From a virus (Duplodnaviria; Caudoviricetes), in the IMG/VR virus record IMGVR_UViG_3300033463_000029, positions 71,164 through 135,163 of that record: a DNA stretch of 64,000 nucleotides. The stretch is one strand, 5' to 3'. Below are positions 6,608-41,685 of this stretch, piece after piece; the first letter of the stretch is position 1; each line of letters begins with the position of its first letter. A program made the translations under genes and the position numbers. The notes beneath the pieces were generated by a model, which worked only from the letters and a program-made list of their open reading frames with translations, was not told the origin of the DNA and searched no databases.

Positions 6608-8212
6608 ATGAAAATAGAAATGGTATATTCTCCAGAGAATCTGGAAAATTCTCCGGAAATGATAGAAGAGTGTGATTTACTCATACTTGAAGATTTAATT
6701 GAAACATACGGGGCAGATGCTGTGTTTGATGCGCTGAACGAAGATGGAAACTGGAGTCATTTTGGAAATGACTGGGCTATTCCATATAACAAAACCGCCG
6801 GTGGAACATCAAAAGTAAAAGGATTAGGGAAGTTAATACAATCTATCCCCAGCTTCGCAATAACAGCGGCGATATCTTGGCCAGTTGCGGTTTTTGCTGG
6901 AATAGGTGCACTATCACACAGAATACAGAAAAGGTGGGAAGATCATAATTCTTGGAGACAAAGGCTAATCCCAGGATTCTGGGTAGACGCACTTGGTGCC
7001 CCACAGGGAACATCAACTCCACATGATATAGTCGCTGCACCATACAGACTTTCAAAAAAGGCTCTTAAGCTTTTAGGAATCGGCGCGGCCGGTGCAGTTG
7101 GATACGAAGCAGCAAAAAAGAAAGGTATCATAGATAAAATAAAAGGATACATCAATAAAAAGAAAGATGGAAAAGATGCAGCAAAGGACGCTTCAACCGA
7201 TTCATCAATAGCTGGCGCAACTCCATATATGTCCGTTCCGGGAGAGCAAGAACAACTTTTCACACCAGAAGAAGTTAAAAGCTGGGATTTTAAAGAATAC
7301 TGGGTAACACTAACAAACGGTGAAGTAATACGAGTAAAAACAAACACCGCCGAAAACGCAAAACGTATGGTAGCATGGCTTCTTGGTATACTTGCTGCAT
7401 CTAAATATTATAAGACTGTTAACGCCGAGATATCATCAGGAAGAAAGATGAAATACACGGTTCCGTTTGATAATGGGGAAGTTGCAATAGTTGCTGCACA
7501 ATCTGAGAAGGACGCAATAGAAACAGCAATTTCTCAAAGAAAACAATTCTGTGACAGTTTAAACAAATCTTGCAACGGACTAATTCCGCTAGAACCAATG
7601 GCGGCAGGAAACGTCGTAAAACAAGATGTTGTCGTAAAAACGTCAGAAAAGGTGAAAGAACCTCAAATCAAAGATGTTTTGGATCATAAACCAGAAAAGA
7701 AAGAACAAAATGTAGGAAAACTCCCGAAACCTCTTTATAAATTGAACGGGTTGGATCACTATAAAGTTAGATATTCTCAATTTATATTCAATTATGGGGC
7801 TGGAGATAAAAACTCGGCAATCGACGTGTTTAACGGAATACTAAAAAATGAGGCGAAAGACCTCATGACTACAATCGAAAACAATTTCGAGAAATACGCT
7901 AAGATATATATCATTGGCTTTGGTGACGGAGATGTCTACAAAATACCAAACGATTCAGAATTTTCAGCAAAAGAGCAAGCAGAAAAACTTCATAAGGTCA
8001 AAATGAGTGTGATGGAAGCTCAGTCCCCAAGAGACGGAAGAGTTGAATTGGCTAACCTTCTTAAAAAATACGGAACAAAGATAAACGCAATGACCAGCAG
8101 AATGCAATCTACAGAAAAGCCAAGAAAGCTTGGAAAGAGTGATAAAGCATACTTTGCTGAAATCCTCGATGAGAAGGGTTCCGAAAGCAAATTCGACATG
8201 AAAGTTAGTTGA
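6608..8212 (+). CDS. Hypothetical protein, probably virion-associated, with hydrophobic helices
   Basis: 534 aa. Late-type promoter, LNE-type motif, Gly/Ala-rich hydrophobic segments and a KDASTDSS motif. Confidence 0.7.
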   Translation: MKIEMVYSPENLENSPEMIEECDLLILEDLIETYGADAVFDALNEDGNWSHFGNDWAIPYNKTAGGTSKVKGLGKLIQSIPSFAITAAISWPVAVFAGIGALSHRIQKRWEDHNSWRQRLIPGFWVDALGAPQGTSTPHDIVAAPYRLSKKALKLLGIGAAGAVGYEAAKKKGIIDKIKGYINKKKDGKDAAKDASTDSSIAGATPYMSVPGEQEQLFTPEEVKSWDFKEYWVTLTNGEVIRVKTNTAENAKRMVAWLLGILAASKYYKTVNAEISSGRKMKYTVPFDNGEVAIVAAQSEKDAIETAISQRKQFCDSLNKSCNGLIPLEPMAAGNVVKQDVVVKTSEKVKEPQIKDVLDHKPEKKEQNVGKLPKPLYKLNGLDHYKVRYSQFIFNYGAGDKNSAIDVFNGILKNEAKDLMTTIENNFEKYAKIYIIGFGDGDVYKIPNDSEFSAKEQAEKLHKVKMSVMEAQSPRDGRVELANLLKKYGTKINAMTSRMQSTEKPRKLGKSDKAYFAEILDEKGSESKFDMKVS

Positions 8213-18903: not shown

Positions 18904-21420
18904 TTAAGCTGTTGTTGAACGATGTACGGTGATAGGAACAATAATCTTCTCCATAAGCTGTGACATCCACACACCGATTTCGCAGATGCCGAACTTGTTG
19001 TCAATAACTTCCTTGTCATTGTTATATTCGTCGCATTCTACTTCGAATTTAACAAGAGCACCAGAATCCTGCATTGCCTGAAGGATAGGGTTAACCTTTC
19101 TTTCAATCTCTGCTCTCATCGTAGGAATATTGTATGAGAATACATAGTCGTCGAGAACACCTTTACATACAATCTGAATTGTATTGAGAAGCTCTCTGCA
19201 ATGGAGATTGCTAAGGTCGGAATCAACCGTTTGATATGCGGTCTTATCACCGAAAATCATCTTAACACCATCTCTGTCGATGATTGGATTGATGCCGAAT
19301 TTCTCAAGATATCCTCTTTCTTCGTCATCGAAGTCATACTCAAGAGCGTCTATAGCAGGGTTGTCAAGAATACCGTTCTTATTAGCAATTGCCTTGTAAG
19401 GATCGCCACCATTGAACTTCTTCATGAACGCATTTGCAACATCAGCTGCCGGAGGAACAAGGAATCTACGATTTCCTTCACGATAGATAAGGAACGGTGA
19501 GAACACAGCTGCGTGTGTTGCGCCGTTATCCTCGCTAGGAAGGCTAAACATCTCAGTGCTTTCGTCGTAAATCATATCGGTGTTACCACCTTCTGGAATA
19601 TACTTGACATTGAACTGAGGTCTTGCCTGCTCTGCCTTGTCGAACCAGTCATCACCAAAGAATGGAGCGTCACTTGATGCGAACTGTGTTATTGAAGGTG
19701 CGTTGATGATTGCTGTTGCGTGGAACTTAGCCTGACCAAGCTGTGAGAGGTATTTCTTACCACCGCAGTTTGCTCTAAGACCATAAGCCATTGTGTCAAC
19801 AATGTATCTAAAGTCCATCTTATTGTTGTTAAGAAGTCCTCTTACGATACCCTCATCACCAACAGTATACTTGCCGTTTTCGTCTCTTTCTGTTGAAAGC
19901 ATTGAGTAAATCTTCTCAACACCAGCTTCGTTGTTTATTGCACCACTTGCATCGAATCCTGGCATATGTCTGCTGGAAATCTTAAGTCCCGCAAGATAGA
20001 AGAACTTGAGATTCTTTGTGATGTTTGCATAATCCTTGTGAACAGTAACCTTTCCGACAGGATCGCCTTGAGTTAAGCTGTACTCACCGTTTGTTGTGAA
20101 TTTGAAATAACCGCTTGTTCCGCTTGATGCGTCCAAAGCAACACTAGAATCTATGCTTGCTAGACCCTGTTTCTTTATTATTCTTACACAACGACCATCC
20201 TTTCCTTCTACAAAGTCACCGACAGAAACTTTAGATGCCTTTGTGCTTGCGTCAATGACATCAGCGCTTGTGAGGGCGAATTCTGTACCAGAAATCTTTA
20301 CTGCGCTGTAAGAAGCTATTGCTGCGCTTGCACCCTCAAATACATCAGAAAGGTGCCCTGTTGATGTTGCTTTGAGAGTTGTAGTTACAAAGTCAGGAAG
20401 ATATTTTGCATCAACCTCTGATTCTCCACGCTCACCGTCACCATCGATGTCAAGATAATACTTCTTTGTGTTAACGTCGTAAGCAAGTGCTTCAAGAGCC
20501 TCTTCATTTATCGAAATCATAAGACCAGTCTCATTGCTGCTCTTGTTGATTAGATAATCGATGCTCTTGAGATTTCCCTGTGCATCGGTAAAGTTAGGAA
20601 TAACGCTACCTGTCCAAGCACCAACAAGATTTACACCCTCGGCGTTTATGAATTTACCAAGCATCGCTTTCTTAAGACCGCTTGCATCGAAATATGCTGA
20701 CCAATTCTTGTCTGTGCTTAGAACTGATGCATCGTCCCAGTTTCCTGAGAATGCGTAAACATCAAAGAAGTAATCACAAACATAATCGTTAGGATTTATC
20801 CAAGCATATGGGATGTTCTCCTTTGAACCATAATAATCAAGGAATGAAAGCTTATAACCCTGAACATTCTCTGATTTTCTTACGATAACGGAAAGATCCT
20901 TTGTTCCGCAGTTTGCTATACCGAACAATGGAGCCTGTTCGAGAACTCCACTCGCGTCAACCTTTCTGAGAACATTCTGCTTGAAAGCGACATCATCTGC
21001 AATCCAGAAACGGGTTCTGTCGTACATATATGCAAAGTTAGCTTTTCCAGTAGAAGAATCTACAGAAGAGTCTGCGCTAAGCCAAGCATAACCGACCTTA
21101 TCCTTGTTATCCGCCTTGTCAGACGTATCAACTTTAAGAAGGTTCATTACATAAACAGCATCCTTACGAAGCATCGTGCGGATTGATCTATTTGTAAAGC
21201 AACCACGTCTCTCAAGTTTACGATCGATTGGTCCGAATAGTCTCGTGCAAGTGCCTGTATCTGAGAGCCAAACTGGTCTGTTGAATGGACCTCTCATATT
21301 AAAACCGACCGCTAAGCGGAGGGCATTTTGTGAAGAAGCTCCACTGATAACAGAATCGTCAATCTCAAGGAAATACACGCCAGATGCGCTATAATCTGAA
21401 AAATTTATTTTCTGAGACAT
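18904..21420 (-). CDS. Tail sheath protein (gp18-like)
   Basis: N-terminal SGVYFLEID, GPFNRP, VPPAA.V, GINPI, IFGDKT, LSNLHCRELL and C-terminal CDEYNN.EVID. Confidence 0.93.
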   Translation of the reverse strand: MSQKINFSDYSASGVYFLEIDDSVISGASSQNALRLAVGFNMRGPFNRPVWLSDTGTCTRLFGPIDRKLERRGCFTNRSIRTMLRKDAVYVMNLLKVDTSDKADNKDKVGYAWLSADSSVDSSTGKANFAYMYDRTRFWIADDVAFKQNVLRKVDASGVLEQAPLFGIANCGTKDLSVIVRKSENVQGYKLSFLDYYGSKENIPYAWINPNDYVCDYFFDVYAFSGNWDDASVLSTDKNWSAYFDASGLKKAMLGKFINAEGVNLVGAWTGSVIPNFTDAQGNLKSIDYLINKSSNETGLMISINEEALEALAYDVNTKKYYLDIDGDGERGESEVDAKYLPDFVTTTLKATSTGHLSDVFEGASAAIASYSAVKISGTEFALTSADVIDASTKASKVSVGDFVEGKDGRCVRIIKKQGLASIDSSVALDASSGTSGYFKFTTNGEYSLTQGDPVGKVTVHKDYANITKNLKFFYLAGLKISSRHMPGFDASGAINNEAGVEKIYSMLSTERDENGKYTVGDEGIVRGLLNNNKMDFRYIVDTMAYGLRANCGGKKYLSQLGQAKFHATAIINAPSITQFASSDAPFFGDDWFDKAEQARPQFNVKYIPEGGNTDMIYDESTEMFSLPSEDNGATHAAVFSPFLIYREGNRRFLVPPAADVANAFMKKFNGGDPYKAIANKNGILDNPAIDALEYDFDDEERGYLEKFGINPIIDRDGVKMIFGDKTAYQTVDSDLSNLHCRELLNTIQIVCKGVLDDYVFSYNIPTMRAEIERKVNPILQAMQDSGALVKFEVECDEYNNDKEVIDNKFGICEIGVWMSQLMEKIIVPITVHRSTTA

Positions 21421-25663: not shown

Positions 25664-26508
25664 TAAAACAACTCTATTTCCTTTGGCTCAACCACATCAT
25701 AATTTGTTATGATTAGTTCTTTCCCTGTCATATCGGCATCCTCAGTCACGTTCCTCATCCCATATGCAAATTCAAAAGGCATTATATTAAAATCTTTATA
25801 CAATTCTCTTATATAAGGACAATCATCATATGTTATGAGCCATTTATGTTTGCATTTCCCGACAGCATCTCTAAACCTTTCATGGTCAAACCCTTTGTGA
25901 AGTTCTCCGTTCTTTCCGTACAGCGCAGAATCTGTGGCAGAATAATACGGAGGGTCTAAAAATATGAAAACATCTTCTCCATCTGCTTCGAGAAGCTCGG
26001 AATAGTCTTCACAAGTAAGTTTAACGTTATCGTCAAATGCCCAAGAACAATATCTTATTCTATCTATCGATGATTTTGTAAACCTTTTTTCATATGACTC
26101 CTGTGAATATCCACCGCTCAGCGATGTGCCAGAAAACGTAATTCTGTTTATTATAAAGAAAAACGTAGCTCTCTCGATATCTTTACATTTTTTAGAAATA
26201 CCTTCCACGCAATATTCATACATAGATTTCCCATCAACGCCATCCTTATGGGAATAATAATTGTTTACGCTTGCTATAAGATAATTTGGATTTTCTTTAA
26301 CAAGTTTCCAAAAGCAAAACAAATCATAATACAGGTCGTTAACCCAGTATTTTTTATCCTTATTACTGGATTTTGTAGCTAAAAACACTGAGCCTCCACC
26401 GAGGAACGGTTCTCGGTACTCAGAAAACGAAGGAAACAAAGTTACCAAATGTTCGGCAACTTTGCTTTTACCTCCGGGATATCTTAACGGCGTTTTATAT
26501 TTTGTCAA
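25663..26508 (-). CDS. dam: Dam-family (D12 class) N6-adenine methyltransferase
   Basis: PLRYPGGKS, EPFLGGGSV, VNDL and FLDPPY. Recognition site not determinable. Confidence 0.88.
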   Translation of the reverse strand: MTKYKTPLRYPGGKSKVAEHLVTLFPSFSEYREPFLGGGSVFLATKSSNKDKKYWVNDLYYDLFCFWKLVKENPNYLIASVNNYYSHKDGVDGKSMYEYCVEGISKKCKDIERATFFFIINRITFSGTSLSGGYSQESYEKRFTKSSIDRIRYCSWAFDDNVKLTCEDYSELLEADGEDVFIFLDPPYYSATDSALYGKNGELHKGFDHERFRDAVGKCKHKWLITYDDCPYIRELYKDFNIMPFEFAYGMRNVTEDADMTGKELIITNYDVVEPKEIELF

Positions 26509-27515
26509 AATTCAATACCTTTTAATTTTTCAGACACTTCTTTTGTGTATTCATCATCAACAGAAATGAGATTAACAAATTCATTTTCTCTTATTGTTTT
26601 AGAAAGAACAAGAGGATTATGGGAAACCAATATTATCTGACAGCCATATTCTTTGGCAACTCTTGGAAAGAATTCTGTATATAGGAATATGACGTGAAGA
26701 ACATCAAGGCTCTTATCAATCTCATCAAATATTATTGTATACGGAGATTCAACAGAATACTTAGGAAGTGTCTTGAAATATTCTATCTCAGATTTATATG
26801 ACGACGCCCAAGCCTCGTTGACTCTGTTAATTTCTTTAACTAAAGGAGACACGAAATTTTCCAACGAATTCTTTTTTGTGCATACCTTGAGAACATTGTT
26901 CAACATAAATGAAGATAACTGACCGGCAGAAATACTGTTTCCATACATATGATATCCGATTTCAGACTCTGTGTTTCCACCGAACAACATGTCCCCCATC
27001 GCACCAAATTCAGAAAACCTAGAAGACCGCAGAACATCTGGATCATATGCATACACCGGGGTTCCATCCCACTTCACAACTGATGAATTCTTCTTGAATT
27101 TGTTTATGACAACATTTATGTCATTCTTTTCTTCTCCCCAACCAAAATCAAGAGGCTCAATAAATTTTGGGCTTCCGGATTCTTCTATAAGCGCTGTACC
27201 CTTTATCTGCTTAAGAATTGTAGATTTTCCAGATGCGTTTGGTCCAAAAAGTATATTGACCTTTCCATCCTCGAAACGAAACGTCTTCCCTATGAGATTC
27301 TTTGCACACGGAAGAGCATAAGAATCCTTTACGGTTTCCCATGTTTTAATGTCTTTATAATATTTTCTGAGGGCTTTTCTATAAGCCTTTTCTTGTTCAA
27401 CCGGATCTAAAATCCTACGAAAATCCCTGTCGGATTTTGACGGTCTTCCCGGCTTCTCCGGCTTATCGTAAATGTATCCTGTTCCGTTCTCTGGAAAATA
27501 TACAGATTCAACCAT
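26505..27515 (-). CDS. Stand-alone ABC-type ATPase
   Basis: Walker A GPNASGKST, signature SAGQ, Walker B IIFDEID and H-loop VSHNP. Confidence 0.85.
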   Translation of the reverse strand: MVESVYFPENGTGYIYDKPEKPGRPSKSDRDFRRILDPVEQEKAYRKALRKYYKDIKTWETVKDSYALPCAKNLIGKTFRFEDGKVNILFGPNASGKSTILKQIKGTALIEESGSPKFIEPLDFGWGEEKNDINVVINKFKKNSSVVKWDGTPVYAYDPDVLRSSRFSEFGAMGDMLFGGNTESEIGYHMYGNSISAGQLSSFMLNNVLKVCTKKNSLENFVSPLVKEINRVNEAWASSYKSEIEYFKTLPKYSVESPYTIIFDEIDKSLDVLHVIFLYTEFFPRVAKEYGCQIILVSHNPLVLSKTIRENEFVNLISVDDEYTKEVSEKLKGIEF

Positions 27516-27523
27516 ATTCTTAA

Positions 27524-27739
27524 TTATTCGTTATCGAGACGTTTCCAAACACAATCCAGAAAATCGTCTATGTTTTTATCCAAATAAAAACAATCAACCT
27601 TGTCGATAAACTGAACATCTCTGGCTACGTTACCAAAAATTTCCTCAACAGCATTAAAAACAGACTGACCCTTACGCCAGTCTTTTGGATAGGTTCTTAC
27701 CTTTTCCCAAACGAGAGTTATGAATTCTTCGTATGACAT
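27524..27739 (-). CDS. Small hypothetical phage protein
   Basis: 71 aa with WRKGQ..FN and DCFY motifs. Confidence 0.7.
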   Translation of the reverse strand: MSYEEFITLVWEKVRTYPKDWRKGQSVFNAVEEIFGNVARDVQFIDKVDCFYLDKNIDDFLDCVWKRLDNE

Positions 27740-27747
27740 ATATTTGT

Positions 27748-28176
27748 TTATTTCTTTATCCAGTACCCGTACAGGCTCTTATACCCGCAATCCCATATGT
27801 CCGCATATTTTCCGTTCTTTCCTCCGACCACGTGATTTGAAACTCTCATCACGTAGGAATCATTCGGGTGTTTCTCAGCAAACTCGGCGACGGTTGGTCT
27901 ATTTTCTCCGCGTTTCGGTTTGATCGCGTGCCATTCAAACCCTTGGGATTCGAGATAGTCTGTAATGTTTTCAGTAAGACCGAGATTCCACTGATTCCTT
28001 CGTGCGGACTCGACCATTCCGTCAAAAACTTCTAGCCAAGTCTTTCCGGTCGCTGCACATATACATCTTATATGGCAGTCCCCGCATTTATGAATATTTG
28101 GCTGAAAATATTCAAAATTCTTAAAATAGACATCAACTTTTTCTCGTCCCAAATTAAGCGTTTTAATCTTTTTCAT
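27748..28176 (-). CDS. Hypothetical protein, possible papain/C39-like fold
   Basis: GDCHIRCI..ATG..W, NHVV and YADIWD give a Cys-His-Asp-like arrangement. Confidence 0.55.
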   Translation of the reverse strand: MKKIKTLNLGREKVDVYFKNFEYFQPNIHKCGDCHIRCICAATGKTWLEVFDGMVESARRNQWNLGLTENITDYLESQGFEWHAIKPKRGENRPTVAEFAEKHPNDSYVMRVSNHVVGGKNGKYADIWDCGYKSLYGYWIKK

Positions 28177-28200
28177 TTCTTTTATTATTTAAATCTAATA

Positions 28201-28232
28201 CAAAGATAATGAATATTTTTCAGACTTCCAAA
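28201..28232 (-). promoter_or_regulatory. Bacteroidota-type promoter TTTG-N20-TATCTTTG
   Basis: Both the -33 element (28229-28232) and the -7 element (28201-28208) are present at canonical spacing. Confidence 0.75.
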
Positions 28233-29104
28233 TCTTTTTCAACTTTGTTTACTTTTATTTCATATCCAGTTTGCTCAGATATGTATTTTGATATGGTTTT
28301 TTTCTTTCTGTCACCCAAATCATAAACAATCGTGTTATCCTTGAGAGGTGAACCAAAAACGCAAATGGGGTTATGACATATACACAGCACGTCTGCATTA
28401 AATACAACAGCAATGTTTGTGAGAAGCCTATGAAATTTAAATTGCGCAGAAATGTCAAACCCTTCATCAACTTCATCAACCACAATCAGAACTCGTTTAT
28501 CATATGCACGTTTCTTCTCTTTGAATTCATTCGTTGAAAAATTTGTCGTTTTCTGTATTTTATCAATAAACCTTCCGAGCATATCTTTAGCTTTCTGCCC
28601 TTTTGAAATACGTCCAGAAACAAATCCTCCACCAGCAACAAATCCAGCAGCCGTTGCAGCGTTTATAAAAGATGTCGGGTCATCATCTATACTATCCAAA
28701 ACAAAAACATAATCGTACACATCAATACCAGAAACATCGACGACCGTTGTGTTTTTGTATATCGCGTCATCGTTGTTTGTCATTCCGTCGAACAACTCTT
28801 TATTTACATCAAAAAGAGAGTTTTTCTTTGCACGTATATAATGCATAAGTGTTGTTTTCCCACACCCGTTTGGACCAACAATGTACGTTGGAGTTCCCTT
28901 TATTGCTTCTATACATATTTCGTCGCCAGATTTAAAACATCTGTCGTCACGGTTAAATTTGAATGAAATCTTATTTGTAGTACCAGCTAAATCAAAAATT
29001 TTGTTCTCGTTATCAATCACTCCATGTGTGGTAGCATCCGCACGGCCACCACCAACGGAACAACCTTTCTTAGTATCGTCTATATCATTCATGCATTGAA
29101 TCAA
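28220..29104 (-). CDS. Second stand-alone ABC-type ATPase
   Basis: Motifs GPNGCGKTT, SKGQ, IVVDEVDEGFD and ICHNP. Confidence 0.85.
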   Translation of the reverse strand: MIQCMNDIDDTKKGCSVGGGRADATTHGVIDNENKIFDLAGTTNKISFKFNRDDRCFKSGDEICIEAIKGTPTYIVGPNGCGKTTLMHYIRAKKNSLFDVNKELFDGMTNNDDAIYKNTTVVDVSGIDVYDYVFVLDSIDDDPTSFINAATAAGFVAGGGFVSGRISKGQKAKDMLGRFIDKIQKTTNFSTNEFKEKKRAYDKRVLIVVDEVDEGFDISAQFKFHRLLTNIAVVFNADVLCICHNPICVFGSPLKDNTIVYDLGDRKKKTISKYISEQTGYEIKVNKVEKDLEV

Positions 29105-29113
29105 TTATTTTTA

Positions 29114-29338
29114 TTAAATTCATCTTCGCGAATCTTTTTTCCGTAGCAGTATGCCGGACAAGAAAGACAACACGGAAACAAGCGACACCAGAACGGCAAC
29201 CGCTTGTCATATATAAGTTTTATAAAATCAGAAATAGTCATAATTGAAATCGTCTTCTCTTACGGCGATTGCTCCCATTACTGAAAAAAGAACGAGAACA
29301 CAAAGAAACGGAATACCGGCGATTAGTGAAACGCTCAT
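29114..29338 (-). pseudogene. Two-TM small membrane gene interrupted by in-frame TGA codons
   Basis: Hand translation gives MSVSLIAGIPFLCVLVLFSVMGAIAVREDDFNYDYF*FYKTYI*QAVAVLVSLVSVLSFLSGILLRKKDSRR*I*, where the first three stops are TGA. ATGA-coupled to the upstream gene. Confidence 0.5.
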
Positions 29339-29523
29339 AATTCGTTACGTTTATTTGAAAATTTGTCAGTGTAATAATCTACAGCAACGAGAATTGCGAA
29401 CACGGCCGCAACATTTCCCATATCAAGCGGTTCTTTAAGTAAAAGAGATATGATCCAGCAAATAAATCCGCTGAACAGATACTGCACAATCGATACAATA
29501 TAAGCTTTAACTCTTGGTTTCAT
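29335..29523 (-). CDS. Small two-TM membrane protein
   Basis: 62 aa with two hydrophobic segments. Confidence 0.65.
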   Translation of the reverse strand: MKPRVKAYIVSIVQYLFSGFICWIISLLLKEPLDMGNVAAVFAILVAVDYYTDKFSNKRNEL

Positions 29524-29525
29524 AT

Positions 29526-30110
29526 TTATTTTACGTATAATGATTCTTCAGCATAACAGGGAAACGTCCAGCTTCCATCAAACAGAGGATTTTGAATAAG
29601 CGTAACTTCATTATATCCATCTTTATATGGTTTTGGAAACTTTACGCTAGAAACAAGCTTACCCTCCAGAAGACTGTGAACAAGCATTAGTTGGATTTCG
29701 GTCATCTCTATAAACTTGGCAAGAAGCATATTGTAATCGGTCTTTGATGCAAACGACGATCTTAAGAACGAGACAATCGCATTAAAATCGTGAATAGACT
29801 CAGAAAGAAGAGCTATGTTTGGTATGGACCACCTGTCAATGTAAATCGATTGTGGTTTGGATGACCAAGTCACATTGCACATCTTCTTGTCACCCTCTCT
29901 GAACGGGTACGTAAACCGGGTGAACCCGTTTTCATCAATATACTCGCCATCTGGCGTATAAGCCGGAAACAGTTTGAAAAGTTTCTTAAACTCCTCGACA
30001 TATTCATCAAACAAATATGGCTGAGGGTCTTTTCTGAAATCATGATATTTTATCTTATTGTGAAGATTCCAACCTTCTTTGATCTCAGTTTCCGTTAATG
30101 TTGTTCTCAT
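29526..30110 (-). CDS. Hypothetical protein
   Basis: 194-aa ORF with an ATGA overlap. Confidence 0.7.
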   Translation of the reverse strand: MRTTLTETEIKEGWNLHNKIKYHDFRKDPQPYLFDEYVEEFKKLFKLFPAYTPDGEYIDENGFTRFTYPFREGDKKMCNVTWSSKPQSIYIDRWSIPNIALLSESIHDFNAIVSFLRSSFASKTDYNMLLAKFIEMTEIQLMLVHSLLEGKLVSSVKFPKPYKDGYNEVTLIQNPLFDGSWTFPCYAEESLYVK

Positions 30111-30367
30111 AATGAAAATATTTTTGTTTCGCCAACGTTCATCTTTGCTACAATTTTTCTTATCTCATCATAATCAAATGTAACAAACATTTTTACATTG
30201 TCGAGTCGTTTCAACGAATAGTTTATTTTAAGGGTATCCTCTGCAACATCCCTTGTAACGCCTTTATATTGCATATATTCAGAAATCTTCTTCTCCCACA
30301 TTTGTGGAAGAACACCGGACTTCGGATCAATATCCGGCAAACGAGTTATTTGATACCTTATATTCAT
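30107..30367 (-). CDS. Hypothetical protein
   Basis: 86 aa, starting 5 nt after a -7 element. Confidence 0.7.
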   Translation of the reverse strand: MNIRYQITRLPDIDPKSGVLPQMWEKKISEYMQYKGVTRDVAEDTLKINYSLKRLDNVKMFVTFDYDEIRKIVAKMNVGETKIFSL

Positions 30368-30372
30368 TTTTG

Positions 30373-30403
30373 CAAATATACTACATTTTTAGGGTTTTTC
30401 AAA
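30373..30403 (-). promoter_or_regulatory. Bacteroidota-type promoter TTTG-N19-TATATTTG
   Basis: -33 element at 30400-30403 and -7 element at 30373-30380. Confidence 0.75.
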
Positions 30404-30625
30404 TCAATTGTCGCCAAATCTATATGAAACGAATGCAAAATCTTCATAAGGAACGAATCCAAGTTCTCTTAGACGAGATTTGTCTTCGTCTGACACAGCG
30501 TCCGGTGAAACGCAATTTACAAACAACATATCGTGTTCGCAAGTTGTCGGAAATTCCCTGCCATACTCGTCATCCGGACTGATATATTTCTTAAGGATGG
30601 TCAGGGCTTCAATTAAATCTTCCAT
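30404..30625 (-). CDS. Small hypothetical phage protein (73 aa)
   Basis: Start reassigned to MEDLIEALTI, downstream of its promoter. PT.CEHD.L.V and S.RFG motifs. Confidence 0.7.
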   Translation of the reverse strand: MEDLIEALTILKKYISPDDEYGREFPTTCEHDMLFVNCVSPDAVSDEDKSRLRELGFVPYEDFAFVSYRFGDN

Positions 30626-30647
30626 AAAACAAAATTTTAATACGGGG

Positions 30648-30679
30648 CAAAGATATAAACAATTTTTGAAAAAAACAAA
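30648..30679 (-). promoter_or_regulatory. Bacteroidota-type promoter TTTG-N20-TATCTTTG
   Basis: -33 element at 30676-30679 and -7 element at 30648-30655. Confidence 0.75.
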
Positions 30680-30705
30680 TGGAACCCGAAGAAAGGATTC
30701 CATTT
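30677..30705 (-). terminator. Probable terminator after the Stealth-GT2 gene
   Basis: Imperfect stem aaatggaa..cc/gg..ttccattt with a minus-strand T-tract. Confidence 0.5.
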
Positions 30706-30731
30706 TAATTAAAACAATTCAACTTTACAAT

Positions 30732-32507
30732 TTAATAGAATTTTGTAGAAAGTTTCAAAAGATTCAGGTCATTTGATAACTCTTTTGAAAATTTCAATCT
30801 GGAAACATTTCTAAAAACAAGTCTTTTTACCAAACGTTTCACAGAAGCATCAGAATTCTTATATTTAGTAAGAGTGTCAAATATGCATCTTATGTATGCA
30901 CGCTGCGTTTCTATTGGAAATCGCCCATCTTTAAATACAGATGTAAGTAGAGAATGCTCCCGCTCAATATAACGATACCCAATATAATTTAATGTTGGAA
31001 GTATCTTTTCTTTCGCAATAACATCTAAAATAAAGAGAGAATCTTCCCAAAGCTGCACTTCTGCAAACCTAATATCTTTCAAAAACTCTTTTCTAAACAT
31101 AATGGAATTAAGCATTGGATCACAATATTTCTCAAACACACTATCTATCGAATAATCGTAATTCATGTTGCAATACAAAAACGACTTTCCATTAAGCTGA
31201 TTTTTTTGTATAAACGTTTGACATAAATTTCTTTCTGTGTTTCTGTTCAAATAATTAACGCAACACTCCAACCGTCTGCTTTCATTAACATCATCGACAT
31301 CTGAGAAACATATATAATCTCCGGTAGCCTTTTCTATTCCAAAATTTCTAGCTTTTGATACACCAGACCAGTCAACAACGAACAGTTTGAATCTATCGTC
31401 TGATTTCGTTGCATCTCTAACAACATCAGCGCCCGAATCTGTGCTGCCGTTATCAATAACGATACATTCAAAATTTTTATATGTTTGTTCTTTTATGTTT
31501 TCGATTAAAGATTTTATAAACGGTTCGCCGTTGTGCATCGGAACAATTATCGAAACCTTTTTGTCTTCAGAATCTTTCTTTTCAAATGAACACCTGAATG
31601 GATATTTTGTCTCAAAATATTCGGTTAAATTGTCTATTTTTTCCTGAAAGTCTACGACGTGTTTATCAAATACGCAACAAACATCAAAATTTTTTATATA
31701 TTTAAAAAACTCAACGTCGTTGTATTGCGACTTCATTTTAAAATCAACGCCGGTTTTTAATCTAGATTTGCATAGATTCTCAACATCGTCTTCATACGCA
31801 AGGAACATATATTGTGTTACGTTTTTTGGATCACGAACTTTTGTAAACGTTTTTAAAAGTTCGTCTCCCCATAAAGAAAACAGTTTTTTCATTGAACTTT
31901 TTCTTAACGGAGACAGCCCATGGTCAGTTCGTATATATGTGGTTTTGGTTGCTGATACTCTTTTTTTCACGCTTCCGAACTTTAAACAATTCTGCCACAT
32001 TTTCCTCCAGTCTTCCTTTTGCGGATTAACGTTTTCAACATAATAAACGTTGCAAGCAATTTTTCTTGTTTTACCATTTCCTTTTGGGAAAAAATCAAAT
32101 TCCGTCATCGGATTGAGAGGAATTATATCATCATTGGCATATATGAAATGCTCGCTGAGCCCTTCGATTCTCCACAAGAAGCATTCAATTGTGTTTGCAT
32201 TAAAACACGGTAAAAATTCTTCTGGAATATAATCTTTGTGATAAACTATCTTTAATCTTGGATTTGATGTATCGAGCCAATCCGGTATTTGTGACGGTCC
32301 GGATAATATAAGGTAAATGTTTCTAATCCAGGGCATATTCTCTTCTACACCGCGAAAAACATATTTCAATGTGCCCATACTTCTATATCTGTAAAGAGAA
32401 TTCCACTCTCCGCTGTTTCCTCCGTTTACATTCTCATACGGCTTGTGTTGCTCTTGCCAAACTGGGTCACTGCAATCTACAAACGGAACGACAAAGTCTA
32501 TATTCAT
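30732..32507 (-). CDS. Stealth-family sugar-1-phosphate transferase fused to a GT2 glycosyltransferase
   Basis: Stealth CR1 IDFVVPFVDCSDPVW and CR2 LKYVFRGVEENMPWIRNIYL...LPCFNANTIE...GLSEHFIYANDD. GT2 VSIIVPMHN...IDNGSTD...GVSKARNFG...FSDVDD...WEDSLF. Confidence 0.9.
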   Translation of the reverse strand: MNIDFVVPFVDCSDPVWQEQHKPYENVNGGNSGEWNSLYRYRSMGTLKYVFRGVEENMPWIRNIYLILSGPSQIPDWLDTSNPRLKIVYHKDYIPEEFLPCFNANTIECFLWRIEGLSEHFIYANDDIIPLNPMTEFDFFPKGNGKTRKIACNVYYVENVNPQKEDWRKMWQNCLKFGSVKKRVSATKTTYIRTDHGLSPLRKSSMKKLFSLWGDELLKTFTKVRDPKNVTQYMFLAYEDDVENLCKSRLKTGVDFKMKSQYNDVEFFKYIKNFDVCCVFDKHVVDFQEKIDNLTEYFETKYPFRCSFEKKDSEDKKVSIIVPMHNGEPFIKSLIENIKEQTYKNFECIVIDNGSTDSGADVVRDATKSDDRFKLFVVDWSGVSKARNFGIEKATGDYICFSDVDDVNESRRLECCVNYLNRNTERNLCQTFIQKNQLNGKSFLYCNMNYDYSIDSVFEKYCDPMLNSIMFRKEFLKDIRFAEVQLWEDSLFILDVIAKEKILPTLNYIGYRYIEREHSLLTSVFKDGRFPIETQRAYIRCIFDTLTKYKNSDASVKRLVKRLVFRNVSRLKFSKELSNDLNLLKLSTKFY

Positions 32508-32529
32508 TATTATTTGTTTAGAGTTTAGG

Positions 32530-32536
32530 TATTTAT
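32530..32536 (-). promoter_or_regulatory. T4-late-like element ATAAATA for the Stealth-GT2 gene
   Basis: Between the capsid terminator and the ATG at 32507. Confidence 0.6.
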
Positions 32537-32540
32537 CCTA

Positions 32541-32573
32541 AAAAGAAAAGGAGGCTCTCTTAGAGTCTCCTTT
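32541..32573 (-). terminator. Intrinsic terminator after the major capsid gene
   Basis: Stem aaaggaggctct/agagtctccttt with a T-rich tail. Confidence 0.75.
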
Positions 32574-32595
32574 ATCTTTGCTATGTTCGTCAAGA

Positions 32596-34389
32596 TTAAA
32601 CGATTCCGTCTGGAGTCTTGATGTAAAGTGTGACATAGTTGAGCTGTGGATACCAACCGAGGTCGATAAGAGCATAACGTGTCTTGATGATGACCTTAGG
32701 AGCAGCAGTGTGTTCAGCGATGAGGCGAACGCTTTCAGCCATAATGTAAGGAGCAAATACAAGACCTGGCTCTTCCTTACCACCCTTACGTCCAACAAGG
32801 ATTCTTGTGTCGTCAGTTCTCATCATAGGGTCAACATAGAGAGTCATACCGGCTACGTTTCCAGCAGGATAGAGGTTACCGTTGCTCTGGCTCAATGTGT
32901 TGGCGATAGGAGAGATAGCATACTGTGAATTGCTCTGGAGCATGCTAGCGATCTTCCAGTTGGTTACGATGAATGTTGCAGGACCTCTACGTCCACGGTT
33001 CATTACGAGGTTACCAGCTGCGAGGATGAGGGTAACGATCTTCTTGAACGTTGTGTCAGCGTTTTCGAATCCGCCGAAGTTTGCAGGAGCAGGAACGTCC
33101 ATTGTTGCGAGAACTTCCTTGAACTCACCATTGATGTCTGGCTCGTCGAAGTATGTTACACAAGTCTTGGTTGTAGCAGCACCTGTGAGTGAGAGGTTGA
33201 GGTTTACACCTTCAGCTTCGTATGCTTCGAAGTGGTTTCTCCAACCGAGAGCGAAGAGTCTGCTGAGGATGTGTTTGTTCATGCTCTGTGAGAGCTCATT
33301 GATACCAGCGGTCTCAACAAGTTTCACAACGTCGATACCCCACTGCTTCTGGAGATCCTGTACCTGTTCCTGAGTAACAGCAACAGCAACTGAGATTGAA
33401 CCAACCTGTACGAACTTTGTGAACACTCTGAGTGACATCTGACGAGGATACTGCATCTCACCAGTTGCACGGCTCATTGGCTCATAGAGGTGCTGGTCAT
33501 CGTGGAATGTGCCACTCCACTTGTCTGAATCGTACTTACCTGAACCGGTGAAGCCAAGAACCTGATCTTCAAGGGCTGAGATGAGACGTGGACGAGCAAG
33601 TGTAAATGTTACACCACCAACAGTTACTTCGAGTTTAGCCTCTGGTCCGAATACCTGTCCAAGAGAAACGTTCTTTGAAGAACCAGAAACCTTGAACATA
33701 GGGTCAGCTGAAATACGGCTTGCACCGATATATTCAACCTTGAGAGCGCCTGAAGCGTCAAGAGCGAACTCTGAAACGCTAGCGTCACGTGTAGCTGCGA
33801 GTGCTTCGTAAGCAGCAGCCTTTGCAGATGCGTCACCAACGATCTTGCAACGGAAAGCGTGAGGAGCCTCGTAGAGAGCGTAAGCTGGATCTACCTGAGC
33901 ACCAAGACGTGTACCAACCTGAGGGTTAGCTGTCTTACCGTCATAAGATGGAGTTGCACCGTAAGCGTCCTTTGAACCTGAATATACATAATCAAGGAAA
34001 GGAATAACGCCTGTTGGACCCTGAAGAGGAATTGTGTTAACAAGGTCGAAACCTACTGTTCTAGCAGCCACCTGAAGTGACATAGGAAGAAGTGCAGGCC
34101 ACTTGTCACCAGAACCGTTAGATGCAGGGTTAGCCTGATCAACAGCTGTCATACCAGCCTGCTGTGCAGGAACTGCATTACCGATACCATTTGTGTTGAA
34201 GAGAGTGTTGAATGGGAATGTTGCGCCACCAGCAGCTTCCTCGTTAAGAGCCATTGCATGGTTGTGTGCATATTCGCAAAGCCACTCAAATCTTGAGCTC
34301 TGTTCGTTAACAGCGTTCTTGGTCATACTTTTTACAGCTGGACCCCAAGCTTCAACGATCATAGCGATGTTGTTTTTATTCTTTGCCAT
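32596..34389 (-). CDS. Major capsid protein (T4 gp23-like)
   Basis: DLVNTIPLQGPTG..FLDYVY, TQEQVQDL..GID, RRGPATFIV, LYVDP, GLVFAPYI and KTRYAL. Strong codon bias. Confidence 0.95.
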   Translation of the reverse strand: MAKNKNNIAMIVEAWGPAVKSMTKNAVNEQSSRFEWLCEYAHNHAMALNEEAAGGATFPFNTLFNTNGIGNAVPAQQAGMTAVDQANPASNGSGDKWPALLPMSLQVAARTVGFDLVNTIPLQGPTGVIPFLDYVYSGSKDAYGATPSYDGKTANPQVGTRLGAQVDPAYALYEAPHAFRCKIVGDASAKAAAYEALAATRDASVSEFALDASGALKVEYIGASRISADPMFKVSGSSKNVSLGQVFGPEAKLEVTVGGVTFTLARPRLISALEDQVLGFTGSGKYDSDKWSGTFHDDQHLYEPMSRATGEMQYPRQMSLRVFTKFVQVGSISVAVAVTQEQVQDLQKQWGIDVVKLVETAGINELSQSMNKHILSRLFALGWRNHFEAYEAEGVNLNLSLTGAATTKTCVTYFDEPDINGEFKEVLATMDVPAPANFGGFENADTTFKKIVTLILAAGNLVMNRGRRGPATFIVTNWKIASMLQSNSQYAISPIANTLSQSNGNLYPAGNVAGMTLYVDPMMRTDDTRILVGRKGGKEEPGLVFAPYIMAESVRLIAEHTAAPKVIIKTRYALIDLGWYPQLNYVTLYIKTPDGIV

Positions 34390-38124: not shown

Positions 38125-41100
38125 TTATGATATTCTTGCTTTTCCAAGATATACTTTTTCAACAATCTTTCCAGATTTGTCAAACTTAATCAACATTTCT
38201 GATTCATATAGAGGAGTTGCAAGAGATGGTATATACCCGAACTCTCTATCCACCGTGAACAAAGATTCCGTTGCGCCCTCATAAAGTTTGGCGTTCTGTC
38301 TTGTCTTCACATATGCATAAACATCGCTTCTTTCTAAGAGAGATTTTCTGAATGACTCGTTGTCAATCTTTGATGTCTTTCCGGTTCCATCATCATATAT
38401 AGACTCTGCTAGAATTGACCATTTTGATGAAACATAATTGTCAAAGGTTCTCTTTATGACAACAGATTCAGTCAATATGTTCTCAACAGAATAAGACGGT
38501 TTGTATGATTCCGCCTTTGTAGATGCATCTTCTGGAGAAGCGCCCTGATTGCCTGATGAAGCGTCAGCTGGAGTTGATGCTGATGAATCTGCCTGCGTAG
38601 ATGCATCAGCTGGAGTTGACACTGAAGAATCTGTCTGCGTAGATGCATCAGCTGGTTTTTCACCGGCTGTTATATCTTTCTTCTCGCCCTCTTTTAATGT
38701 CGCAAACTGCTTAACTGCATTCACTAAACTTTCCGGCTTATCGTCGATGTTACAAATTAAAGTGCTATCCGCTTTATCAGTTGGTCTAGATTTTCCGCTA
38801 AGAATTGTTTTCCCACCGTCATGCCCAATATAGAACGGTCCAACAATATCGCTTATTGTTATAAGAGGCTGATCTGATGTACCCTCCTGACCATGCCACT
38901 TTGTGCAAGTATAAGGCTTTCCTGCATCTTTCATAACTTCGTTCTTAACGTGCCATCTGTTGTCACCGCCGTCCTTTTCAAACTTAAACTCAATACAGTT
39001 TGTAAATATCTCTTTAGTAGAATCTTCGATTAGTTTAAGTTTTTCTTCATCAGTAAGACCTTTCTTTCCACCTCTAAGCTCGTTTTCAATTTCTTCAATA
39101 ACGAGTTCAAGTTGATCTATACTATACTTCTTATTCTTCCAAGGATTCTGGCTTGCATCGGCAATTACCTTTGCCCTGACAGCTGACGTAAGTTTATCTG
39201 TTGATTCTGCAAATTTTTCCTCTTCATTTTCAGCCTTATCAGATATCTTTTTAAGATTATCCTTAACATCTTTCATTGTGGCTTCAGAATCAAGAACGAT
39301 AGATGTAGAGAAATAGTCTGCATCAGAATCACCAACCTTCTTTCCTGGTTTAACTCTATAGAATATAAGAACATTTGTTACATCCGTATCCTTGTCTGGG
39401 GTCACGGCATCCTTTTCGTCGCCTGTTGGAGTTTCACCAGCAGCGGTGCTGCTGTCTTCTGGTTTTTTATCTTCACCTTCTCCATCACCCTCTCCGTCTT
39501 CGTTTATTGTGTTGTCATTGAGATGACTTAAATTTGAATAGTCAACGGACTCGGCAGGAATTGGCAATATTGCGAATATGTTTTCCTCACCTATCTTTTC
39601 ATCTGTTTTTCTGTAGATTGAGGATATTTTTGATTTAGCGTTTGCCAAATCGGAGTTCTGATTAACAAATTTCACAACATCTTCGTTTGTCTTTGCTTCG
39701 AGAGCAGGATCATGTGGAAGATATTCTTTAATTCTCTTGACAACATCCTCAACATCGGATGCTTCCTTGAATTCCATATTAAATTCAGGCGTGTCGGCAT
39801 CCTCTGATGTTACAAGTTTAACGAACTCGTCTTTCTTTATAGGTGTGCCGAGTTTTATTCTATCAACCCTTTCAAATCCTGCAATTTTATCGTTGTATAC
39901 CGCAAACGCAATAGTATTATATTCTTCACCCTTTTCGTTCGATGAGTCACTGTCACCTATGGCGAAAATCGTTTCTATCTTCTTTGCCTTGCTGTCTCCG
40001 ACCTCTCTCTGAAAGACCGATGAAGTCACCTCTTTCTTCCAGTCTTCGCTATCTACGATATAAGGATCAAGTGCGAGCCATTTCCCATATTCGAGAACGA
40101 CTTCCTTCTTCTGTCCGTTGTCATCCTTAAACGCATCATACAATATCTTTGTATCAGGATTAAGATGAGCAATGCTTCCATAATTTGTAAAGTCTCCTTC
40201 AACCAGACCGACCAAAGAAATCTTCAATTCTTTCTTTTCTCTATTTGCTTCAAGAATCTTGACGAGAGCAACATTTCCTTTCGCTCTCACCTTATCTGAA
40301 CCAAATGAACTTCCAAGCACACCCTGTGCATTTGTCTGGCGAACAAGATAATACTGGTCTTTAACTGGATATGTATCAAGAACATAATCAGCTTCACCGG
40401 CAAGACCACTTTTGAACAGAGGAAGAACATTCTGAAGAATGAATCCCAAATATGCCAAGTATGGTTCGCTTGAAACTATTTCTACAAGAATGTGTGAGAA
40501 ATTGTTATTGTAAATATCCTTCTGAGAATCCCACATATTCTGAAGCTTTTCCTGTGCGGCAATCAAAAGATTTGAAGTCTTCTCATCTTTCGCCTCGGTG
40601 TATTTTGAGAAATTCTTTATAATACCATCACCAATGTTATAATAGTGCTTTAACATACTATCATAACCTTCCTTTAATCTGGCATACTGTTTATTAAACT
40701 TGTTTCCTTCTGGAACCTTTCCATATTTTTCAAGAATTTCATGAAGTTTATCAACTGCACTCGTGTCTATGTCTGACAATGAACCAGATGTTATTCCGAG
40801 ATCCTTGAAAACTCTGTCCATGTTGACATATTTGTCGGCGTAATTGTATATTATAGAATAGCAAATCTCTCTAACAGATTCTTTATTAAGCTGGACAGTT
40901 TCTCCCTTGTATTGGAACTGCCCGCCCTTTAATGACATGTCTGTAATAGAAAATCCGCTTTCACTTGAGCTTTCACTGCCTGCCTCATTTAGAGCGTTCT
41001 TCGCTTCAAGAACGGCATGAAAACTTTCATATACAGTCTTTCCTTCTGACTCTGCTACAGACTCATTCTGATCCGTTTCATTCGCAACTTTAATCTGGTT

Positions 41101-41685
41101 ATATGCTGTAACGGCACACTGATAGTCTCTCAAGATTTCATCTTTATATTTGTTACAGAATGGATAAAGACCAATGTTGTAATTCTTAGACGCTTCACCG
41201 TTTTTCTTATTGAAATTCATAGTAAAGAGCCTTCCGAAGAAGTCTCCAATCTTTGCTCCAAGTCCGCCATATCCGGGAAGGATATTCTTCATTGACATTC
41301 CGTCTGGATTCAAAGTGAAATCCTTCTGTGCCCTTTGCAAAGCCTTAACAACTTTATTATATCTAACTTTAATGCTCTTGTCAAGAACCTTTATAAGCTT
41401 TATTATAGCTGCTATTATAGCTGCGGCTCCAGCAACGATTGCAATCTCCTTGAAATGAACAGCAAACCAACCGAGACCAGCTCCACCGCCAGCTCCACCG
41501 CCAGCTGCGCCCTTTCCAAGTATTTTTGCACTTTGGTTTATTATTGTTCTATTGAATTCTATGTGGAGTGGCCATACACTTTTTGTTGTATGCACGGCAG
41601 CTTTCGCTGGCAAATTTACCACTTGAGATATTCCTCCAACATCAACAGGGAGACCTGGATTTATTTCATTAAGTATATTACCCAT
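38125..41685 (-). CDS. Large late, probably virion protein
   Basis: 1186 aa with an N-terminal hydrophobic helix, many LNE/LYES motifs and PADAST repeats. ATAAATA at 41713-41719. Confidence 0.7.
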   Translation of the reverse strand: MGNILNEINPGLPVDVGGISQVVNLPAKAAVHTTKSVWPLHIEFNRTIINQSAKILGKGAAGGGAGGGAGLGWFAVHFKEIAIVAGAAAIIAAIIKLIKVLDKSIKVRYNKVVKALQRAQKDFTLNPDGMSMKNILPGYGGLGAKIGDFFGRLFTMNFNKKNGEASKNYNIGLYPFCNKYKDEILRDYQCAVTAYNQIKVANETDQNESVAESEGKTVYESFHAVLEAKNALNEAGSESSSESGFSITDMSLKGGQFQYKGETVQLNKESVREICYSIIYNYADKYVNMDRVFKDLGITSGSLSDIDTSAVDKLHEILEKYGKVPEGNKFNKQYARLKEGYDSMLKHYYNIGDGIIKNFSKYTEAKDEKTSNLLIAAQEKLQNMWDSQKDIYNNNFSHILVEIVSSEPYLAYLGFILQNVLPLFKSGLAGEADYVLDTYPVKDQYYLVRQTNAQGVLGSSFGSDKVRAKGNVALVKILEANREKKELKISLVGLVEGDFTNYGSIAHLNPDTKILYDAFKDDNGQKKEVVLEYGKWLALDPYIVDSEDWKKEVTSSVFQREVGDSKAKKIETIFAIGDSDSSNEKGEEYNTIAFAVYNDKIAGFERVDRIKLGTPIKKDEFVKLVTSEDADTPEFNMEFKEASDVEDVVKRIKEYLPHDPALEAKTNEDVVKFVNQNSDLANAKSKISSIYRKTDEKIGEENIFAILPIPAESVDYSNLSHLNDNTINEDGEGDGEGEDKKPEDSSTAAGETPTGDEKDAVTPDKDTDVTNVLIFYRVKPGKKVGDSDADYFSTSIVLDSEATMKDVKDNLKKISDKAENEEEKFAESTDKLTSAVRAKVIADASQNPWKNKKYSIDQLELVIEEIENELRGGKKGLTDEEKLKLIEDSTKEIFTNCIEFKFEKDGGDNRWHVKNEVMKDAGKPYTCTKWHGQEGTSDQPLITISDIVGPFYIGHDGGKTILSGKSRPTDKADSTLICNIDDKPESLVNAVKQFATLKEGEKKDITAGEKPADASTQTDSSVSTPADASTQADSSASTPADASSGNQGASPEDASTKAESYKPSYSVENILTESVVIKRTFDNYVSSKWSILAESIYDDGTGKTSKIDNESFRKSLLERSDVYAYVKTRQNAKLYEGATESLFTVDREFGYIPSLATPLYESEMLIKFDKSGKIVEKVYLGKARIS
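38555..38655. repeat. 42-bp (14-aa) tandem repeat PADASTQ.DSS.ST, about 2.4 copies
   Basis: ctgcgtagatgcatcagctgg recurs at 42-nt spacing. Confidence 0.85.

Follow-up and report, generated by a model that had tools for sequence, protein, structure and literature searches.

A predicted Stealth-GT2 fusion enzyme downstream of the capsid gene and a D-[AS]-S motif of outer virion proteins in a Lak-related giant phage: a case for two separate features

The window considered here is a stretch of 64,000 nucleotides that forms the second half of a 135,163-bp IMG/VR contig (G000; record IMGVR_UViG_3300033463_000029) from an uncultured gut or rumen virus of the Caudoviricetes. CheckV places the completeness of the contig at 25%, implying a genome of roughly 0.5 Mb, and protein-identical copies from it are also present on a 329-kb contig. 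The subject of this study is a pair of features: a gene next to that of the gp23-type major capsid protein, predicted to encode a fusion of a Stealth domain with a family 2 glycosyltransferase (GT2), and an enrichment of the tripeptide D-[AS]-S (DAS or DSS) in the capsid and other virion proteins. The initial annotation of this DNA had joined the two into one system in which the fusion modifies the motif. That proposal is not borne out, as the motif appears to be clade-wide and older than the fusion, for which no orthologue was found. The features of the locus are the following (window coordinates; aa, amino acids; nt, nucleotides; ORF, open reading frame):

32596..34389, minus strand: major capsid protein of the gp23 type (597 aa); three DAS, aa 186, 202 and 211 (33751-33837); Pfam Gp23, 1.4e-34
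32547..32573, no strand assigned: terminator-like 12-bp hairpin between the capsid stop codon and the promoter box of the fusion gene, with a T-run next to it on the minus strand; read from the sequence
32530..32536, minus strand: ATAAATA promoter box of late type, 29 nt ahead of the fusion ATG; motif count over the contig
30732..32507, minus strand: predicted fusion of Stealth (hexose-1-phosphate transferase type) and GT2 (GT-A), 591 aa; Pfam, PDB sequence matches and motifs
30677..30705, minus strand: terminator-like hairpin and T-run directly after the fusion stop codon; read from the sequence
27524..32507, minus strand: lineage-specific cargo block, made up of the fusion gene and then ORFs of 99, 86, 194, 290, 142 and 71 aa; synteny against the relatives L030, L067 and L068, and tblastn

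The fusion appears to be an intact, soluble enzyme of two domains, Stealth and GT2. Its Stealth_CR2 region (PF11380, aa 40-144) reached 123.1 bits, the cut-off being 39.4, and Glycos_transf_2 (PF00535, aa 319-478) scored 106 bits. Stealth_CR1 was weak (18.5 bits, under the cut-off of 27.2), CR4 was marginal (13.8 bits, E 0.056), and the Pfam profile search gave no match to CR3 even at E<=10. The N-terminal half matches GNPTAB (7s05, 9bgg) and Mycobacterium tuberculosis CpsY (8j2n) by sequence, the CpsY alignment covering aa 2-220, and its NDD (aa 125-127, in 'YANDDIIP') aligns with 'YLNDDVM' of GNPTAB. The PDB sequence matches of the C-terminal half are GalT1 (5hea, aa 317-522), heparosan and chondroitin synthases and TagF-N, and the motifs DNGSTD and DVDD ('SDVDD') can be read in it. 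The closest named relatives of this half are polysaccharide-building GT2s, and it scores far under all NCBIfam equivalog cut-offs, so that no specific activity can be assigned. Reading of the 591-aa sequence revealed no transmembrane segment, hydrophobic stretch or signal peptide. Together with the spacing of 88 nt from the end of the capsid gene, the Pfam matches and motifs confirm that an intact Stealth-GT2 fusion lies directly downstream of the capsid, as had been proposed. Characterized Stealth enzymes use sugar acceptors and UDP-sugar donors and form phosphodiester links (PMC5974469).

With its own box and the hairpins on either side, the fusion gene is a self-contained promoter-gene-terminator unit; its GC content is 0.338 vs 0.481 for the capsid gene. 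The two strands of the 135-kb contig carry 38 copies of ATAAATA. Of these, 23 fall in the 80 nt preceding an ORF, a space amounting to 5.7% of the sequence in which ~2 would be expected. The box precedes the sheath, capsid, 1186-aa, 1188-aa and 534-aa genes, among others. The box is genuinely enriched upstream of genes and shared with virion genes, and the label 'late-type' that the initial annotation had given it is reasonable. Upstream boxes of the contig fall into two classes (for example upstream of window 5412-6236): ATAAATA stands mostly before virion genes, and a second box, TATATTTG, is enriched 6x upstream of ORFs and agrees with the -7 box of Bacteroidota, TAnnTTTG. The presence of both classes suggests a switch from host-type early to phage-type late promoters.

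The slot occupied by the fusion (window 26224-32595), between the capsid gene and an AAA_21/Dam/PolB block, is hypervariable across the clade (L001, L002, L025-L057). In relatives it holds DUF7487 (10 loci), Dam and N4/N6 methylases, intein-bearing PolB, CCA/polyA polymerase, ThyA, ClpP, CotH kinase, GH16, IS605/TnpB, a radical SAM enzyme and one sugar epimerase. In L030 and L067, three small unrelated ORFs take the place of the fusion and the six further ORFs, and after the island the gene order is again common with relatives (AAA_21 - Dam - PolB - DUF488 - Metallophos - sheath). The fusion is lacking at the syntenic site in the closest relatives, L030, L067 and L068, and a tblastn search of 42 metagenomic capsid relatives gave no match to the fusion or the cargo block within 10 kb of the capsid gene. 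Among 25 of the 33 families found downstream of the capsid gene in relatives there was no conserved glycosyltransferase (GT), and the ORFs of 766-768 aa in that position are not GT homologues. No homologue of the fusion above 42% identity was found among 5.8 billion proteins; the best full-length match is at 42%, and the best stand-alone match to the GT2 half at 48%. The contigs on which its nearest homologues reside are phage-like but unrelated, and one is TGA-recoded; the same architecture is found in proteins from bacterial metagenome-assembled genomes (MAGs; P0014, P0021) and on other phage contigs (P0002-P0006). The sources of stand-alone Stealth homologues are MAGs of Prevotella, Alistipes and Azobacteroides. 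The post-capsid slot thus has the appearance of a cargo hot spot with the fusion as strain-specific cargo, for which reason the adjacency of fusion and capsid genes is weak evidence of a common function.

Two observations concern homologues of genes in this region. The top homologue of the fusion (42%), on L018 (Logan SRR16020819 contig, 18.6 kb), is translatable only with TGA=Trp and has as neighbours another Stealth_CR2 gene, this one stand-alone, along with a RepL-like gene and one for a lytic transglycosylase. The family-B DNA polymerase piece of the window (423 aa, 23816-25087) matches an 831-aa ORF in the relative L002 (18203-20698), whose surplus length includes intein splicing domains; such inteins are found in three relatives.

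In its gp23-type capsid gene, the phage has about 72% DNA identity and 46% protein identity with the Prevotella Lak megaphages (Lak-A/B/C). Lak megaphages ('Grandevirales') recode TAG to Gln, have a GC content of 26-31% and genomes of 476-660 kb (PMC11165621). The contig differs from them in its capsid, only 46% identical, in a GC content of 37.7% and in the lack of TAG recoding: TAG is the stop of 27 of the 192 called ORFs and the coding density with table 11 is 94%, which rules out an alternative genetic code in favor of the standard one. We take the phage, on these sequence characters, as a member of a Lak-related giant phage lineage that lies outside Lak proper. The sheath orthologues of Lak-A1/B1/C1 (L010-L016) are 1253-1285 aa long, ~430 aa longer than the 838-aa sheath of the window, and their genes contain in-frame TAG, in agreement with the published TAG=Gln recoding, which is needed for their translation.

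Besides the capsid, the proteins and segments of the window that carry the D-[AS]-S motif are:

18904..21420, minus strand: tail sheath, 838 aa, 6 DAS and 3 DSS, all in aa 117-492 (variable outer region); PHROG 34521 at 2.4e-98
38125..41685, minus strand: 1186-aa protein, encoded at the start of the conserved block of head genes, 5 DAS and 4 DSS; motif count
38518..38658, minus strand: low-complexity linker of the 1186-aa protein (aa ~1010-1056), tandem PADASTQxDSSxST, 4 DAS and 2 DSS; read from the sequence
6608..8212, plus strand: 534-aa late-promoter protein with KDASTDSS; motif count and ATAAATA box

The 1186-aa protein gave no match in Pfam, PHROG or Atlas. On recount, the numbers of DAS and DSS originally given for the capsid, sheath, 1186-aa and 534-aa proteins were all exact, and the accompanying hand estimate of roughly 1-2 expected DAS agrees with a total of about 1.5 computed from their own composition (capsid 0.2, sheath 0.5, 1186-aa 0.58, 534-aa 0.2). 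The four proteins contain 15 DAS, whereas the five remaining permutations of these residues occur 0, 3, 1, 2 and 3 times; in this count, 4 of the 5 DAS of the 1186-aa protein are non-independent, lying in one low-complexity stretch with three in a 14-aa tandem repeat. The other 39,258 aa of the genome contain 6 DAS vs 6-11 for the remaining orderings, and the genome-wide figure is 21 vs 10.6 expected. A genome-wide tripeptide comparison had been recommended, and the excess it reveals is order-specific, with a small number of exposed virion proteins accounting for nearly all of it. With shuffling confined to blocks of 20 or 60 residues, the DAS excess has P<3e-4 in the sheath and about 1e-3 in the capsid. 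The codons beneath the motif differ, and Ser is written by both TCN and AGY, ruling out a DNA-level motif; selection therefore acts on the protein. Internal domain duplication in the sheath was likewise ruled out, the contexts of its nine sites showing no repeat. No D[AS]S is found in the 1188-aa tape-measure-like, 622-aa baseplate wedge and 995-aa unannotated proteins, nor in large enzymes such as the 525-, 558- and 694-aa ORFs. Outside the window, a 910-aa protein (G000:948-3680, minus strand) has a Cys-containing repeat with NTFGN x16 and NNC/NDC/CWN motifs; it also has 2 DAS and 2 DSS together with an ATAAATA box, and is therefore likely to be a fibre or another protein of the virion exterior.

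The motif extends well beyond this phage. All three DAS are kept in the capsid of L030 (315-kb contig; 87% identical), and the sheath of L067 (73% identical) has 6 DAS and 2 DSS. In 120 sheath homologues (46-73% identical), DAS totals 224 vs 18-112 for the other orderings, and when distinct alignment columns are counted DAS (50) and DSS (44) are the top two tripeptides, followed by SSV (28). Nearly all of their D[AS]S (447 of 451) fall within the variable outer region (aligned to aa 96-500), at a density of 8.85 per 1000 aa vs 0.08 in the core. The broader context is [ILV]-D-[AS]-S-[VT]; Ser follows DA in 33% of cases (4.7x), and DAD, DAN and DAT are depleted. More distant IMG/VR sheaths (38-41% identical) have 1.73 DAS vs 0.28 expected, and DAS again ranks first by column number. 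In capsids of 56-87% identity, DAS/DSS are re-used at two or three places of one variable segment amid changing flanks. The L002 orthologue of the 1186-aa protein has (N)TDAST x3 at the corresponding place, and a low-complexity linker of P0220 carries the array DASVGTSVDASVDSSVDTS. A 776-aa protein of the IMG/VR relative G004 (353067-355397, minus strand) contains 15 D[AS]S vs 1.6 expected, with the motif at 7- or 14-residue spacing in its C-terminal part (…DSSLxxLDSSIxxLDASV…), resembling a coiled-coil fibre; the motif-rich proteins of G004 and G006, this one included, gave no PHROG matches. DAS and DSS are absent from the sheath and capsid of Lak-A1/B1/C1, whose Ala and Ser content is similar, ruling out composition or GC bias as the cause, and the outer inserts of the Lak sheaths are as large as those of this clade. 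D-[AS]-S thus appears to be a clade-wide, Ser-specific motif of exposed variable loops and linkers that is selected at the protein level. It seems to have been gained repeatedly in the capsid, the sheath and a few other outer virion proteins, and to be absent from conserved cores, internal and baseplate proteins, and enzymes.

AlphaFold 2 (AF2) models, used only for the secondary-structure context of their better regions, place all 12 capsid and sheath sites in loops or at the N-ends of helices. In the capsid, DAS186 is at the N-end of helix 187-201, DAS202 lies just past its other end and DAS211 occupies a hairpin loop; the nine sheath sites are all in loops or at a helix N-end, with DAS230 capping a helix. 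The structure prediction called for by the initial annotation thus puts the sites in exposed-type regions, albeit on models of low confidence.

Conservation of the motif in the closest relatives without the fusion at the locus leaves the pairing of enzyme and sequon unsupported. Co-occurrence of Stealth/GT genes with DAS had been suggested as a check on the pairing, to be abandoned if DAS were common in relatives without the enzyme; L030 and L067 keep DAS sites and have no fusion at the syntenic place, so that DAS is indeed common without the enzyme, at least as far as this fusion is concerned. Two other phages with a fusion of 34-42% identity show no DAS excess in the neighbouring proteins. 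GT genes do not travel with the motif across related phages, as they would in virion glycosylation of the mycobacteriophage type. There are no further glycosyltransferase, nucleotide-sugar or other sugar genes in the 135-kb contig, and no Stealth or GT2 genes in the complete Lak-A/B/C genomes. The relative G004 (IMG/VR; 363,991 bp, 94% complete) has four GT2 genes and clustered dTDP-rhamnose genes (RmlB/C/D-like) at 218-237 kb, sharing a stretch of about 218-241 kb (L153, L154) with nrdD/nrdG and a T4-type portal gene, and at 298-304 kb encodes a 796-aa TupA ATP-grasp + TOD1/MUCI70 protein and a 767-aa GT2 + TOD1 protein. G003 has GT92/GT2 with TupA, G006 has GT2 and GT25, and G005 has one GT2. 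Dividing genome-wide DAS by the mean count of the other orderings gives 2.3 in G000, 2.7 in G006, 1.4 in G004, 1.0 in G005 and 1.1 in Lak-A1. The presence of GT2 and the motif excess are therefore imperfectly correlated, G005 having a GT2 and a ratio of 1.0. When the genes of the 135-kb contig were compared, only two small, uninformative ORFs were common to G000, G004 and G006 and absent from G005 and Lak-A1.

On balance, we lean towards two independent features: the fusion would be a late moron that extends some glycan, and D-[AS]-S a separate, clade-wide motif. Judging by family, the GT2 half would use a nucleotide sugar as the donor of a sugar, and the Stealth half would place a sugar-1-phosphate on a sugar hydroxyl with release of UMP; acting late in infection, the two would make or lengthen a glycan with phosphodiester links. 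The acceptor would be an already glycosylated surface, i.e. a virion-bound glycan or a host envelope polysaccharide, and the fusion would probably not initiate glycosylation on bare peptide. The motif would act as a surface modification or recognition motif maintained by something shared by the clade rather than by the fusion, which would at most be a lineage-specific elaborator. Of the phage sequon originally proposed, the Ser specificity and the location in exposed loops and linkers of outer virion proteins stand, and the fusion as its writer falls. Several observations weigh against the two features being independent, or against a surface role of the motif. The Lak-A/B/C genomes combine absence of GT2 with absence of DAS in capsid and sheath, a coincidence that fits glycosylation, as does the late-type expression signal of the fusion. 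The relatives carry other, non-orthologous GT sets, leaving room for each phage's GT2 to act on D-[AS]-S; all except Lak-A/B/C are fragments in which a fusion-like gene could lie elsewhere, and about 25% of the genome of the phage itself is covered. The AF2 models are poor overall (pLDDT, the predicted local distance difference test, of 52 and 56), and moderate to good near the sites. Two sites (capsid DAS186 and sheath DAS230) are helix N-caps, sheath columns 430 and 490 hold either Ser or Asn/Asp depending on the homologue, and fibre-like proteins of G004 and G006 have D[AS]S-[ILV] in heptad-like (coiled-coil) or beta-helix-like repeats. Part of the motif signal may thus be structural.

These last three observations are what speaks for a purely structural motif, an unmodified Asp-initiated turn or helix N-cap, combined with a fusion that is an unrelated moron altering host capsule, lipopolysaccharide or exopolysaccharide, for example so that progeny do not adhere to debris or other phages are kept out. 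Such an explanation is possible, though we think it unlikely. A generic type-I turn preference accounts for the motif only in part, since a generic Asp-turn would accept D-A-D/N, but D, N and T are depleted after DA while Ser is enriched 4.7x; moreover, the Lak sheaths with their equally large outer inserts have neither DAS nor DSS, and motif arrays stand in low-complexity linkers, where no fold is expected. A structural account leaves the Ser specificity, the lineage specificity and the linker arrays unexplained. An action on host polysaccharide would agree with the stand-alone Stealth homologues of the MAGs named above, with the resemblance of the GT2 half to polysaccharide GTs and with the location of the gene within a cargo island, but late expression in a lytic phage would be an odd choice for surface conversion. 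We consider it improbable that D-[AS]-S is a sequon for Ser O-modification on the outer capsid and sheath, initiated by a conserved, unrecognised enzyme and followed by lineage-specific GT cargo that diversifies the glycan, much as O-antigens vary. The diversifying cargo would then be the Stealth-GT2 fusion here and the rhamnose/GT2 island of G004, the GT92/TupA and the GT25 in relatives, and the product in this strain would be a sugar-phosphate coat.

The direct pairing of the initial annotation, with the fusion recognising D-[AS]-S of virion proteins in the cytoplasm and placing a phosphoglycan on the Ser, appears distinctly improbable. In its favor are the late-type promoter common to fusion and virion genes, the predicted soluble, cytoplasmic nature of the enzyme, the exposed loops in which the motif is located and the joint absence of GT2 and DAS in Lak-A/B/C; some GT2-type enzymes glycosylate protein Ser/Thr, and GmaR is among the PDB matches of the fusion. 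It is opposed by the age and clade-wide spread of the motif, which predates the fusion gene, by the DAS sites kept in the closest relatives, which have no fusion at that locus, by the lack of an orthologue among the 5.8 billion proteins and of a neighbouring DAS excess in the two phages with a similar fusion, and by the acceptors of known Stealth enzymes, which are sugars and not peptides (PMC5974469). That the fusion modifies phage DNA, e.g. by adding a sugar or sugar-phosphate to a hypermodified base, is highly improbable. The contig does have nucleoside 2-deoxyribosyltransferase and DUF488-type genes, but no hydroxymethylase or related base-modification gene was seen in its 135 kb, the promoter of the fusion is of the late type and not the early, host-type TAnnTTTG box, and the gene is missing at the capsid locus from all 42 relatives. 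We also know of no Stealth enzyme that acts on DNA. Phage glycosyltransferases as such often do so (PMC12619734).

Two other proteins of the window have unusual composition. A 403-aa protein (47202-48413, minus strand) with homologues in G004, G005 and G006 contains a strong Ala-Pro-Val low-complexity run (APV x12, AAP x10). Just upstream of the sheath gene, a conserved 307-aa ORF (21534-22457, minus strand) has an ATAAATA box and a very acidic Ser/Asp run, SDDEEKSDDSSDDDSKDSD.

The analysis carries two lessons for the study of phage glycosylation: a GT beside a capsid gene is no evidence of virion glycosylation when the slot is a cargo hot spot, and motif enrichment needs to be dated against the distribution of the enzyme itself. 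The Stealth+GT2 architecture on phages widens the range of a family otherwise familiar from bacterial capsules and from lysosomal targeting. Should D-[AS]-S turn out to be modified, phage virions would have their first described internal sequon, and giant gut and rumen phages would coat their main exposed surfaces, with bearing on immune recognition, mucus binding and defence evasion.

Bacteroidota, the likely host phylum, also use an Asp-anchored Ser motif for O-glycosylation, D-(S/T)-(A/I/L/V/M/T). The initial annotation held DAS to be unlike it, and the three-residue rule bears this out: DAS lacks Ser/Thr after Asp, and DSS has Ser instead of a methyl-bearing residue in third place. Furthermore, Bacteroidota O-glycosylation is periplasmic and virions assemble in the cytoplasm; no export signal could be read in the sequences of the motif-bearing virion proteins. 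Mycobacteriophages offer a precedent for the idea of virion glycosylation, as work by Freeman et al. 2023, cited in PMC12619734, is said to have found that their GTs O-glycosylate capsid and tail proteins and thereby shield the virion. In those phages the glycans are on the C-terminal tails of capsid and tail tube, whereas the candidate motif D-[AS]-S is internal, in capsid and sheath loops, and no conserved GT partner was found for it.

With the Stealth hexose-1-phosphate transferases (the Neisseria meningitidis capsule polymerases CsaB/CsxA, CpsY 8j2n, and GNPTAB 7s05, a eukaryotic GlcNAc-1-phosphotransferase), the fusion has CR2 and its NDD in common, and like this family of soluble or peripheral enzymes (PMC5974469) it is predicted to be soluble. 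It differs from them in its additional C-terminal GT2, its origin in a lytic giant phage and its late-type promoter. Stealth polymerases were believed to be single-domain (PMC5974469). The capsule polymerases CslB and Cps1B/Cps7D likewise combine a GT and a sugar/polyol-phosphate transferase in one polypeptide (PMC5974469), a likeness that predicts a poly(oligosaccharide-phosphate) product for the fusion; these enzymes use GT-A plus GT-B-like or TagF-like domains, where the fusion uses Stealth. As a genetic element, the fusion most resembles the phage morons: it is a one-gene unit of lower GC with its own promoter box and terminator-like hairpins, inserted in a variable slot between conserved genes and absent from close relatives. 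It departs from them in using a phage late-type box and not a host promoter, in residing in an apparently lytic phage, and in carrying what would be a glycan-building cargo.

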